Below, piece after piece: positions 41,404-62,645 of a stretch of 64,000 nucleotides of DNA. Position 1 is the first letter of the stretch; each line of letters begins with the position of its first letter. The notes under the pieces were generated by a model. The model saw nothing but the letters and a program-made list of their open reading frames with translations, searched no databases and was not told where the DNA came from. The stretch covers positions 1 to 64,000 of the IMG/VR virus record IMGVR_UViG_3300025398_000635, one strand, 5' to 3'. The stretch is from a virus. Lineage: Duplodnaviria; Caudoviricetes. The position numbers and the translations under genes were made by a program.

Positions 41404-41541
41404 TCAGAATTCCAGTGTTACTAATTCATAATCCGATTTGCTAACACCGCATTCTGGACAACATACATCATCTGGTAAACTGTTATAGTCTTCTACTGAT
41501 AAAATATGTCCACATACTACACAACGATATACCTGTTCCAT
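41404..41541 (-). CDS. Rubredoxin, 45 aa
   Basis: Hand translation MEQVYRCVVCGHI...CCPECGVSKSDYE; TAATG coupling to rubrerythrin. Confidence 0.8.
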   Translation of the reverse strand: MEQVYRCVVCGHILSVEDYNSLPDDVCCPECGVSKSDYELVTLEF

Positions 41542-41990
41542 TATAGGGTCTCCTTTACTTTTTGATATGCTTCTGCATGACGCTTCTCAACTTTAGCCAG
41601 CGCGGCAAAACGTTTTTCAGCTTTGGCCAACACTTGAGCAAATTGATCAGCATGTTCTTTTGATTCATCAATTTGATGTTGTGCTTCGACGGCAGCTTGT
41701 TGATTACCTTCTTCAACTGCTTCTGCTAACATTGTTGGATACATGTGAGTATATTCTTCAGTCTCACCATCAATAGCCAACTGTAGACATTCTTTAGTTG
41801 AAGGTTTACCAATTAGTAATTCTAAGTGACCCCAAGCATGCAGGATCTCTTGATCTGCTGTGTGTTCAAAATGTTTAGCTACATCTTCAAAACCTTCTTC
41901 TCGAGCAATTTTTGCAAAATAGCGATATTTGATGTGTGCCTGACTTTCACCAGCAAGTGCATCTGCTAAATTTTTAAGTGTGATAGACAT
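41541..41990 (-). CDS. Rubrerythrin (ferritin-like di-iron domain)
   Basis: ALAGESQA..KY..FAKIAREEG; QE..HA; GE.EE..HMYP; ES.EHA. Confidence 0.9.
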   Translation of the reverse strand: MSITLKNLADALAGESQAHIKYRYFAKIAREEGFEDVAKHFEHTADQEILHAWGHLELLIGKPSTKECLQLAIDGETEEYTHMYPTMLAEAVEEGNQQAAVEAQHQIDESKEHADQFAQVLAKAEKRFAALAKVEKRHAEAYQKVKETL

Positions 41991-42082: not shown

Positions 42083-42131
42083 ATTGATTTTTTCAATAAT
42101 TATTTTAATAACGGTAATTGATTTTTTTAAT
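42083..42131. promoter_or_regulatory. Candidate LysR/OxyR-type operator repeats
   Basis: ATTG-N7-CAAT (42083-42097) and ATTG-N7-TAAT (42117-42131). Confidence 0.35.
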
Positions 42132-42141
42132 AACGAAATTG

Positions 42142-42167
42142 AAAAAGAAACCCGCCGAAGCGGGTTC
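42142..42167 (-). terminator. Terminator after tmRNA coding piece
   Basis: AACCCGC-TTCG-GCGGGTT followed by TCTTTTT. Confidence 0.85.
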
Positions 42168-42174
42168 TGCTATT

Positions 42175-42530
42175 TTGGGTGACAAGGTATAACTACCTCG
42201 CAAGTGCAGTTTCTTAGGCTGCTAGTGCAAATGCGTCGTCGTTAAGAGCGACATCAACTTGCATGTACTTGAATGTATTTGCTTTTGCATTTACGATATT
42301 TGCTTGATTTACAGTCATCGCCTACTCTGTTGCCTCTTTCGCTATCTCACCATGTCGAAACCTTGTCATCCCCATCATAAAGATACATATCGCATAGTTT
42401 ATAAAACAGGCTATGCCCCACATATACTGCCAGTGCCAGTTTTCAAACATACTATATCCTTATGGTGGAGATGCCGGGAATCGAACCCGGGTCCACAGTG
42501 CCTTCACTACGAAGGAATTACAACAATTCT
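42175..42530 (-). ncRNA. ssrA: Circularly permuted (two-piece) tmRNA
   Basis: Acceptor piece ends GGTTCGATTCCCGGCATCTCCACCA (42463); 89-nt spacer; coding piece begins GGGGATG..TTCGAC (42373); G3.U70; tag 42288-42214 AKANTFKYMQVDVALNDDAFALAA*. Confidence 0.9.
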
Positions 42531-42605
42531 TTACTTACGCTTTTTCAACGTTCTGCGGGCAGTTGCCTTAACAGATCGTGAATGATGCGCACGAAACTTT
42601 GCCAT
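42531..42605 (-). CDS. Arg/Lys-rich micropeptide C, 24 aa
   Basis: MAKFRAHHSRSVKATARRTLKKRK; TAATG overlap. Confidence 0.6.
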   Translation of the reverse strand: MAKFRAHHSRSVKATARRTLKKRK

Positions 42606-42706
42606 TACTTACGTTTGGCACCACGACTTGCCATAGTTTTTAAACTTTTAGCTCGTGGTGGTTTTTTACCTTTTAAAATCTGACTTACTCTACGTGGACT
42701 GGGCAT
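42605..42706 (-). CDS. Arg/Lys-rich micropeptide B, 33 aa
   Basis: MPSPRRVSQILKGKKPPRAKSLKTMASRGAKRK; TAATG overlap. Confidence 0.6.
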   Translation of the reverse strand: MPSPRRVSQILKGKKPPRAKSLKTMASRGAKRK

Positions 42707-42777
42707 TATCTGCTCCTTGCTTTACGAACTGCTCGCATTGCACGTGCCCGCATAGTTTTTGGTTTTCCTCTTGCCAT
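42706..42777 (-). CDS. Arg/Lys-rich micropeptide A, 23 aa
   Basis: MARGKPKTMRARAMRAVRKARSR; AAGGAG RBS. Confidence 0.6.
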   Translation of the reverse strand: MARGKPKTMRARAMRAVRKARSR

Positions 42778-42961
42778 TTTGCCTCTCCTTTAAAAGTCAA
42801 CCCAATCCTTAAGCTCTATAAGGGCATATACTATTATTGCCGCAAAGATCATTAAGGCTATCATTAACATAATGTATTTATTATAGCATCTTTTAATTTA
42901 GATAGCAATGATTTTGAGTAATAGTAGCATAAATACTTGTACAACCGGGAGCGAATCGGAA

Positions 42962-43243
42962 ATGGGCGAAATTTTCAAAATTATCGGGGATCTAGGATTC
43001 CCTGTCGCGGCTGCAATGGCTGGCGGCTATTTTGTTTTCTTAACTATCAAACTACTTTTGGGCGGAGTTTTAGGCTCAGTAAAAGGCATGGCTGGTATTA
43101 TCACAGCACTTGATAATCGTGTAAAAACCATGAATCACGATGTAATACGTATCGATACAGTAGTATCAAACGCACTTGGACTACGTCCAGATGTAGATCG
43201 TATTGCTCGTGCAGATGGTAAGAACGATGCAAGGAGAGACTGA
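42962..43243 (+). CDS. Small membrane protein, holin-like (paralog of 45242)
   Basis: GFPVAAAMAGGYFVF transmembrane segment followed by a coiled coil; ATAAATA upstream. Confidence 0.5.
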   Translation: MGEIFKIIGDLGFPVAAAMAGGYFVFLTIKLLLGGVLGSVKGMAGIITALDNRVKTMNHDVIRIDTVVSNALGLRPDVDRIARADGKNDARRD

Positions 43244-59375: not shown

Positions 59376-61286
59376 TTACTTCTCTTCTTTAGGGTCAACC
59401 TCTGTAAAGCTCGCATCTACTGTTTGCTCAGCAGCCTGTGGTTGGGCTTCAGCTTGAGCTTTAGCCTGTTCAGCAGCCTGTTTTTTAGCAGTCAGTGGAT
59501 TAGCAGCTTCAAAGAATGACTGTACAGCTTTTTGGATAGCCTCTACATCTTCACCGGCCATTGCAGTGTTAACAGCGTCAAGCGCGGTTTGGTATGCAGT
59601 CTTTTCCTCTTCAGTTAATTGATCTTGATATGCATCAAAATCTTTCTTAACTGTATGTAGTGAAGCCTCAGCTTGATTACGTGCTTCAATCAATTCCTTG
59701 GCTTTCTTATCAGCTTCAGCATTTTCTTCAGCTTCTTGTACCATGCGTTGGATTTCAGCATCAGTCAATCCTGAATCAGATTTGATAGTAATCTTGTTTT
59801 CTTTGCCAGTGTTTTTATCTCTGGCACTTACATTCAAGATACCATTAGCATCTAGATCGAGTGTAACTTCAATCTGTGGCATGCCACGCATTGCAGGAGC
59901 AATACCTTCTAAGTTGAACTCGCCCAGTTGCTTATTATACTTGTACAACTCACGCTCACCTTGTGCAACCTTAATGGTCACAGCTGGTTGATTGTCTTCT
60001 GCTGTTGAGAAAACTTGTGAGTGCTTAGTTGGGATAGTAGTGTTCTTAGGAATCAATTTGGTAAACACACCGCCCATTGTTTCAATACCCAATGTTAATG
60101 GTGTAACGTCTAACAACAATACGTCTGTCTTGTCGCCAGCTAGAACAGCACCTTGTACTGCGGCACCTGCGGCAACTGCTTCGTCTGGGTTAACGTCTTT
60201 ACGTGGAGCCTTGCCAAACAGTTTCTCAACTGCTTCTTGTACTTTAGGCATACGTGTTTGACCACCAACTAGGATAACTTCATCGATATCACTAGCACTT
60301 ACCTTAGCATCGGTCATAGCAATCTTACATGGCTCAATTGAACGTTGGATTAAGTCTTCAACCATTTGTTCAAACTTACTACGGGTAATAGTAATGTTCA
60401 TGTGCTTTGGACCGCTTGCATCAGCAGTAACATATGGAAGATTTACTGTAGTCTGTTGTGTGCTTGACAGTTCAATCTTGGCTTTTTCAGCGGCATCTTT
60501 CAAACGCTGTAAAGCAAGCATATCATTTTTCAAATCAATACCGTTGTCTTTCTTAAACTCGTCGACTAGGTGATCCATGATACGTTGGTCAAAGTCTTCA
60601 CCACCTAAGAATGTATCACCGTTTGTGCTTAATACTTCGATCTGTTTATCGCCGTCGATATTTGCGATTTCAATGATCGATACGTCGAACGTACCACCAC
60701 CAAGGTCGTAAACAGCAATTTTGCGATCTCTTTTATCAGCTTTATCAACGCCATAAGCAAGAGCTGCCGCAGTAGGCTCGTTAATAATACGGAGTACTTC
60801 CAAGCCGGCAATTTTACCAGCATCTTTAGTAGCTTGTCTTTGACTGTCATTGAAGTACGCTGGTACTGTAATGACTGCTTGTGTAACTGTTTCACCTAGA
60901 TAATCCTCTGCTGTTTTTTTCATTTTACGAAGTACTTCAGCTGACACCTGTGGTGGAGCCAGTTTTTCGCCATTTGCTTCAATCCATGCATCGCCGTTGT
61001 CGGCTTTGACAATAGCGTATGGCATAAGGTCAATGTCTTTCTGTACTTCTTTTTCGTCAAATTTACGCCCAATCAAACGCTTGGCCGCATAGATTGTATT
61101 TTTTGGATTCGTGACTGCTTGACGTTTTGCTGTTGCACCAACTAAAATTTCTTTGTCAGTGTATGCAATGATTGACGGTGTTGTTCTAGCACCTTCGCTG
61201 TTTTCGATTACTTTTGCAATTCCATTTTCTAGGATTGCTACGCAGCTATTTGTTGTACCCAAGTCGATACCGATGATTTTGCTCAT
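59376..61286 (-). CDS. dnaK: Chaperone DnaK
   Basis: [12 protein letters not shown]; full-length Hsp70; start MSKII. Confidence 0.98.
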
Positions 61287-62386: not shown

Positions 62387-62415
62387 ATTATAACAGATTT
62401 AAATTGACATGTCAA
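62387..62415 (-). promoter_or_regulatory. Sigma70 consensus promoter
   Basis: TTGACA-17-TATAAT. Confidence 0.85.
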
Positions 62416-62645
62416 TACATTTTTTTAGGAAGTTGTTGATCGCGGAGTTTTTTCTTCCAACGAGCTTTAGCCGCACCCTTTTTGCGTTTGCGTTCTGTGG
62501 TGGGTTTTTCGTAGGTTTCTTTTTGGCGGAGATCGTCCAATTTACCAGAATCTTCAATTTTACGTTTGAAACGACGTAGGGCCTGATTGATATTTTCACC
62601 GTCTTTAACGGTAATACCAGTTCCTCTACTCTTCTGATGCATCAT
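62412..62645 (-). CDS. rpsU: 30S ribosomal protein bS21
   Basis: ALRRFKRK...[18 protein letters not shown]...QQLPKKMY. Confidence 0.92.

Follow-up and report, generated by a model that had tools for sequence, protein, structure and literature searches.

Can the stretch in front of a phage tmRNA gene be a set of genes in its own right and, if so, what would the products do? The question is raised by a window of 64,000 nucleotides, the whole stretch of DNA analysed here, which belongs to a viral contig of 73.7 kb from IMG/VR with a rated completeness of 20%. A two-piece tmRNA gene is preceded there by three tiny open reading frames, ORF1, ORF2 and ORF3, that would encode strongly basic peptides. 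A preliminary description of this DNA had interpreted them as an undescribed micropeptide operon that is co-transcribed with the tmRNA and serves ribosome rescue or ribosome binding.

The anatomy of the locus is summarized in Table 1. The described chain of 23-, 33- and 24-aa ORFs behind an AAGGAG ribosome-binding site is present on the minus strand. The ORF1-ORF2 and ORF2-ORF3 junctions both read TAATG, as had been claimed, so that stop and start have one base in common. Also correct is the claimed absence of acidic residues: ORF1, ORF2 and ORF3 contain neither Asp nor Glu, and Lys plus Arg (K+R) make up 36-43%. The AAGGAG site of ORF2 is embedded in the coding sequence of ORF1; for ORF3, the window shows no separate Shine-Dalgarno site. 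The last stop had been said to abut the tmRNA acceptor piece, and indeed no more than 5 nt separate it from the tmRNA, whose first paired base is 42525. The tmRNA was also recognized in an Rfam scan by the beta_tmRNA model RF01850 (114.2 bits over 42585..42146) and by ARAGORN, which made a tmRNA* call at 42555..42123 on the minus strand. A further small gene, ORF0, lies between the promoter and ORF1. It is near-leaderless: the predicted transcription start precedes its ATG by no more than about 3 nt. Homologs of ORF0 are present in two related loci, L024 (64% identity) and L009, and its slot holds longer forms of 31-36 aa in L031, L035, L094 and L155.

Table 1 Features of the micro-ORF/tmRNA operon, its divergent neighbour and the bS21 gene of the window.
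Feature	Coordinates	Strand	Description
Neighbour gene	42908..43243		111 aa, divergent
Promoter	42908..42880	minus	sigma-70 type, TTGCTA, 17-nt spacer, TG-extended TATAAT; 10/12 matches
ORF0	42870..42790	minus	26 aa, hydrophobic, single transmembrane-like; first gene of the operon
Shine-Dalgarno site of ORF1	42790..42785	minus	AAGGAG, 7 nt before the ORF1 ATG; overlaps the ORF0 stop
ORF1	42777..42706	minus	23 aa, charge ~+10, family D
ORF2	42706..42605	minus	33 aa, charge ~+12, family B
ORF3	42605..42531	minus	24 aa, charge ~+10, family A; start overlaps the ORF2 stop
Spacer	42530..42526	minus	AGAAT, 5 nt, between the ORF3 stop (42533..42531) and the tmRNA; kept in relatives
tmRNA	42525..42214	minus	circularly permuted, two-piece, 24-residue tag; Rfam RF04321 tmRNA_permuted, 130.9 bits, E 1e-26
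Terminator	42167..42148	minus	intrinsic, ends the transcription unit; 8-bp stem, 5 GC pairs, T-run
Ribosomal protein bS21	62412..62645	minus	77 aa; PF01165, 60 bits

The first point to settle was whether these ORFs are genes at all. All three are shorter than the usual gene-calling length, and a c-di-GMP-I riboswitch model matched over ORF2, with 21.8 bits below its cut-off of 35; they could thus be accidental ORFs of an A/G-rich pre-tmRNA leader or the remains of a decayed riboswitch. We defined basic micro-ORFs as ORFs of 18-45 aa with at least 34% K+R and at most one acidic residue. On both strands of the window there are four, and ORF1-ORF3 are three of them. Base-shuffled versions of the window contained 0.63 on average and 3 at most, and adjacent ones never occurred, so the real micro-ORFs exceed the expectation from base composition. 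The fourth polybasic micro-ORF of the window (59690-59761, minus strand, 23 aa) is unrelated in sequence to the families described below.

Relatives of the locus are numerous. The divergent neighbour gene has more than 590 relatives in IMG/VR, and in their loci the stretch between this gene and the tmRNA is a mosaic that includes homologs of ORF1, ORF2 and ORF3; the relatives of ORF1 in L025 and L155 are 52-62% identical. In addition, IMG/VR was scanned with degenerate DNA patterns that covered only the first 17-18 codons and left the C-terminal tails unconstrained. This gave 33 loci for ORF3 and 32 for ORF2. The length of the ORF was kept in all matches, 37 of 37 in family A, to which ORF3 belongs (24-26 aa), and 35 of 35 in family B, that of ORF2 (33-38 aa), and the pattern-free tail was kept in every one of them. 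Family A comprises 28 distinct nucleotide versions with 16 of 24 positions invariant, family B 26 protein variants whose first 17 residues are fixed by the search pattern.

Nei-Gojobori estimates gave pS 0.67 and pN 0.10 for family A (dN/dS ~0.06) and pS 0.66-0.76 and pN 0.09-0.12 for family B (dN/dS ~0.07-0.15). In the tails outside the search pattern, pS was 0.67-0.80 and pN 0.16-0.22, with synonymous sites close to saturation, and subgroups of families C and D, found by adjacency alone, had a dN/dS of 0.10-0.20. Variable sites are distributed over the three codon positions as 12/9/23 of 24 in family A and 11-14/7-12/30-31 of 33-35 in family B, and homologs differ by synonymous swaps that need several steps, for example CGT to AGG or AGT to TCG. 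The signals for translation are kept as well: an SD-like motif precedes 67 of 92 genes, homologs standing first in an array each have their own SD site, the stop is TAA in 90 of 92, and the intergenic gaps are almost all between -4 and +3 nt. Frame conservation in related phages had been set as a check by the preliminary description, and the ORFs are indeed kept across about 50 clusters of uncultured phage contigs. On this comparison of sequences, ORF1-ORF3 are almost certainly translated genes under strong purifying selection. That they are not genes is barely credible in view of the codon-position pattern, the conserved stops, a dN/dS far below 1 and the occurrence of these ORFs also where no tmRNA is near. 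A structured RNA or riboswitch in the leader was rejected separately, on the low c-di-GMP-I score and a folding z of -1.7 against shuffles.

The basic micro-ORFs in the roughly 50 distinct clusters from related contigs in IMG/VR were sorted by motif into five polybasic families of 21-38 aa. Family A has an AHHPRS motif, family B starts with MPSPRR, family C starts with MAYRAK, family D, that of ORF1, is of the AAKRAT or ARAMRA type, and family E has a GWRATKS motif. All have a similar basic segment at the C terminus, of the form K-A-x-A-R-R-x-L-K-K-R-K. Through this segment, local hhalign comparisons linked A with C (93%), B with D (85%) and A with B (76%), values that call for caution, the profiles being short and of low complexity. 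The genes stand in arrays of one to four, packed tightly or overlapping, and order and membership shuffle between phages: A alone was found 11 times, C-A 7, B alone 7, C-B 5, B-D 3, D-C-A-B 2 and C-B-E 2 times, next to others, and the order D-B-A of the window is unique among the ~50 clusters. In L082, what remains of the N-terminal part of ORF0 continues in frame into a family C peptide. AlphaFold2 predicts for family B a helix (residues 4-11), a loop and a second helix (22-32) with a pLDDT of 88.

Are these peptides versions of something known? For ORF1 and ORF3, Pfam, PHROGs and NCBIfam gave no match. No Pfam or NCBIfam match of the micro-ORF peptides to the fold or the basic tail of SmpB (PF01668) was found, and the 73.7-kb record contains no SmpB gene. 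The micro-ORFs did not match bS21 (PF01165) in Pfam at E <= 10, and hhalign assigned families A, B, C and D and pooled sets probabilities of 0.1-0.6% against 60 bS21 sequences from phages; with values below 1%, mimicry of the bS21 tail was rejected. Profile searches against all chains of the PDB returned nothing significant: families B and C had no match, and family A matched no ribosomal protein. The only natural matches of family D were N-termini of bL35, at a non-significant E of 1.6-3.2. The best match of family A was a segment of Dap1b (E 0.11); it lies in the N-terminal region of Dap1b, outside the part inserted in the exit tunnel, and this likeness was dismissed. Designed repeat proteins were dismissed, too, as their good scores arise solely from summed weak repeats. 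The suggested kinship with tiny ribosomal proteins of the bS22/eL41 type or with the SmpB tail thus finds no support in the Pfam, NCBIfam, PDB-profile and hhalign searches.

Wider searches led to the same picture. A family B profile run against 1.84 billion representative proteins found only six tiny proteins, unnamed or hypothetical; two longer proteins (60 and 71 aa) from that search have the same segment plus extra sequence. The ESM Atlas offered no informative neighbours (best score 0.85), and tblastn with the low-complexity filter on found families A and B in none of 50,697 cultured phage records. The exact patterns of A and B, which divergent homologs would escape, had 0 hits each when 185,579 bacterial and archaeal genomes were scanned. 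The claim that these genes were undescribed is thus upheld by the absence of relatives in Pfam, PHROGs, NCBIfam, the PDB and cultured phages, and on current evidence the five families are a phage-specific, previously undescribed group. They were found only in an uncultured jumbo-phage lineage distantly related to Methylophilales phage Melnitz and Pelagibacter phage HTVC008M; the CHASE2-type cyclase of the window phage is 40% identical to that of Melnitz and 36% to that of HTVC008M. Since a 265-kb relative is 72% complete according to CheckV, the lineage would be that of a jumbo phage of about 370 kb. Routine gene calling sets length limits that genes of this size do not exceed, and so a whole conserved phage group escaped notice.

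One likeness bears on function. Family B resembles the Cro/C1-type helix-turn-helix (HTH_3, PF01381) over positions 22-46 of 55, the half with the recognition helix. ORF2 of the window scores 13.5 bits (E 0.077; cut-off 23 bits), and all 26 family B members stay below the threshold (best E 9e-4); as the search pattern had fixed the first 17 residues, these 26 matches do not count as independent. A complete five-helix Cro/C1 domain was rejected for family B, since the match covers half a profile, the model has two helices only and Foldseek of this model against the PDB found nothing. Together with the composition of ORF1-ORF3, rich in Lys and Arg and free of acidic residues, the partial likeness and the predicted helix-loop-helix would suit polycations directed at DNA, which either compact or silence the host nucleoid early in infection or neutralize the charge of packaged DNA in the manner of phiX174 protein J or adenovirus mu. 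We nevertheless consider this quite unlikely. Half a helix-turn-helix is not a DNA-binding domain, the genes stand in operons for RNA, translation or auxiliary functions and not in structural modules, and their promoters are of the consensus sigma-70, early type and not of the late type, which argues against co-expression with virion genes.

The promoters also bear on the relation to the tmRNA. Co-transcription of ORF1-ORF3 with the tmRNA from an early promoter used by the host RNA polymerase, as had been postulated, is very probable from the anatomy of the operon: there is a single sigma-70 promoter upstream, no terminator was found on the minus strand between 42880 and 42167, and the 5-nt gap leaves no room for a tmRNA promoter. 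In 25 of the 50 clusters the micro-ORFs precede a permuted tmRNA encoded on their own strand, as judged by ARAGORN, the T-arm motif and Rfam. Fourteen of the clusters are in direct contact with the tmRNA, their last stop being 4-12 nt (in one case ~30 nt) from its conserved start, a distance into which no conserved promoter fits; the Rfam beta_tmRNA model has a promoter-like leader at that upstream position in host-type tmRNA genes. The last gene before the tmRNA can be A, B, C or D, and as its stop nearly touches the tmRNA, the bases just upstream of the tmRNA are whatever the last peptide encodes. In at least eight related clusters a perfect or near-perfect TTGACA-17-TATAAT promoter is located 50-60 nt upstream of the first micro-ORF.

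Such tight packing could mean that the act of translation matters, up to the tmRNA or, in other loci, into an IscU gene, and that the peptides are by-products. Translation in cis might keep the leader unfolded, block Rho, time the processing of the pre-tmRNA or deliver ribosomes to the next gene. The stops 4-12 nt from the tmRNA in 13 clusters, the TAATG and ATGA overlaps throughout, also onto IscU, and the lack of an SD site for ORF3 would fit. But amino acids, length and charge are kept while the codons are scrambled, which is not expected for an irrelevant product, and the same peptides occur in differing positions and operons. Moreover, we found no terminator/antiterminator or aptamer of a leader-peptide attenuator between the micro-ORFs and the tmRNA, and the leader RNA folds no better than shuffled sequences. 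A purely cis-acting leader is, in our opinion, very unlikely.

Synteny with ssrA in related phages, also proposed as a check, held in part: half of the clusters are linked to the tmRNA as described, but 17 of 50 adjoin phage IscU/IscA, and several related tmRNA loci (L024, L027, L035 and L066) have no basic micro-ORFs. In most of the IscU-side loci the Rfam scan detected no tmRNA. At these loci a family A micro-ORF often overlaps the start of IscU, as in L106 (3418-4173, plus strand) and also in L109, L111, L112 and L151; the IscU of L106 (NifU_N, E 2e-55) is followed by IscA. The 265-kb relative mentioned above (L025 / G001, 265,680 bp) has B and D at its tmRNA and no family A. The microproteins are therefore not obligate partners of the tmRNA; their genes are accessory and not tied to tmRNA function, and a role specific to ribosome rescue finds no support in this distribution, so that the earlier reading as a ribosome-rescue operon holds only in part. 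The linkage may in part be synteny inherited within a hyperplastic region.

The neighbourhood of the tmRNA is variable in other respects. Between micro-ORFs and tmRNA, other clusters have a CSD cold-shock gene, a 22-aa membrane peptide or a Seg-like GIY-YIG endonuclease. A CspA-type CSD gene is present on the micro-ORF strand in 12 of 50 clusters, and it shares an operon with micro-ORFs and tmRNA in L032 (2722-2922, minus strand) and also in L027, L105, L108, L139, L149, L152 and L162. The Seg-like homing endonuclease is encoded directly upstream of the tmRNA in L032 (1783-2412, minus strand) and also in L031, L033, L034, L070 and L073; its insertion there suggests that homing endonucleases drive the mosaicism of this locus. 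These phage tmRNAs encode tags of unusual length, 23-31 residues, whose N-terminal part is conserved (window 42214-42290, minus strand; L024-L035, L082, L094, L139, L143); sister phages have short tags of ~10 residues ending in ALAA.

A hyperplastic region with Seg-like homing endonucleases, early consensus promoters, a patchy accessory spread, shuffled arrays of putative paralogs and the lack of detectable cellular homologs would also suit microproteins for host takeover or anti-defence whose target is a host protein and which diversify in an arms race. The 26-aa early peptide Stp of T4, which is not polybasic, acts in this way on the restriction/anticodon-nuclease complex. Like Stp and the hyperplastic regions of T4-type phages, the loci described here have tiny early genes, strong sigma-70 promoters and modular shuffling between related phages, but the microproteins have no sequence relation to Stp. 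Very strong purifying selection with near-invariant cores (two thirds of the positions in family A) is unlike fast-evolving counter-defence genes, and the extreme polybasic, low-complexity make-up is better suited to polyanions than to a specific protein interface. A takeover or anti-defence function of this kind is therefore unlikely.

The view we favour, with a probability of about one half, is that the microproteins bind RNA as basic helical peptides and have the translation apparatus or structured RNAs as their site of action. It is derived from the composition, the early promoters, the linkage to tmRNA and cold-shock genes, the translation-rich genome and phage precedents. According to this view, a strong host-type promoter would drive, early in infection, one transcript that carries in this order the small membrane peptide, the three microproteins, the two-piece tmRNA precursor and the terminator. 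With a single transcript running through the tmRNA, the microprotein mRNA would be the translated 5' leader of the pre-tmRNA, to be cut away at tmRNA maturation. The peptides would be short basic RNA-binding helices, with rRNA, tmRNA or other structured RNAs as the likeliest targets, and would serve early as accessory factors in the takeover of translation by the phage, alongside the 24 tRNAs encoded in the window, the tmRNA and bS21; in the relatives, the cold-shock RNA chaperone of the same operon would join this set. Their synthesis on the pre-tmRNA transcript would put the peptides beside the nascent tmRNA, and because microproteins are also encoded in other operons, they could act in trans.

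It is tempting to go further and to speculate that the microproteins are translation cofactors that load in cis on the nascent pre-tmRNA, or on host ribosomes, and retune trans-translation or the selectivity of the ribosome in favour of the phage, but this is rather unlikely. If it were so, a coding 5' leader would make the partners of a structured RNA on the same transcript.

Cellular proteins of such size and charge are mostly rRNA binders. Like bL34, bL36, bS22, bTHX, eL41 and the N-terminal extension of bL35, the microproteins are small (21-38 aa), consist to 35-45% of Lys and Arg, have almost no acidic residues and are predicted to form short helices. Unlike the tiny ribosomal proteins, the micro-ORF families are confined to phages, vary in presence and come in several copies in shuffled arrays. 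In the arginine-rich-motif RNA binders, such as the N proteins of lambda and P22 or Tat and Rev of HIV, Arg/Lys-rich helices of about 15-20 residues suffice to bind RNA hairpins; there, the motif belongs to a larger protein that also has effector regions, whereas here the peptide is the whole product.

Phage precedents point in the same direction. bS21 is encoded by HTVC008M and by freshwater phages (PMC6375957, PMC9723584), and phage bS21 enters ribosomes (PMC6375957). As with the microproteins, this is a small, basic, translation-related auxiliary gene in the same phage lineage, but the homology of bS21 to a cellular protein is clear (PF01165). The bS21 of the window has more than 4000 close metagenome relatives, many of them on large viral contigs. 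A second precedent is PhiKZ014, an early jumbo-phage protein with demonstrated binding to the host ribosome (PMC10914614). Common to both cases are a jumbo phage, early expression, here deduced from promoters, and a proposed action on host translation right after infection; PhiKZ014, however, is much larger, folded and not homologous, and the microproteins are putative ribosome binders. The organization of the operon has a counterpart in the related myophage Melnitz, in which a two-piece ssrA stands behind an early promoter in an operon shared with protein-coding genes; microproteins were not reported, and the leader was described as a glutamine riboswitch (PMC9004378). Early promoter and two-piece tmRNA are thus the same in both phages, but in the window the leader consists of arrayed coding micro-genes.

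A phage pre-tmRNA can therefore have a coding array as its leader, which gives a hybrid mRNA-tmRNA transcript, and next to bS21 and PhiKZ014 the microproteins are new candidates for phage factors that possibly act on the host translation machinery. Should they prove to bind ribosomes, no smaller virus-specific ribosome ligands would be known, and they would help to explain why large aquatic phages carry a tmRNA. Peptides of 21-38 residues are easily synthesized, so that direct binding assays with ribosomes, tmRNA or DNA do not require the phage in culture.

Immediately downstream of the tmRNA terminator, at 41404-41990 on the minus strand, the window encodes a rubrerythrin (PF02915) together with an overlapping Cys-rich, rubredoxin-like ORF of 45 aa.
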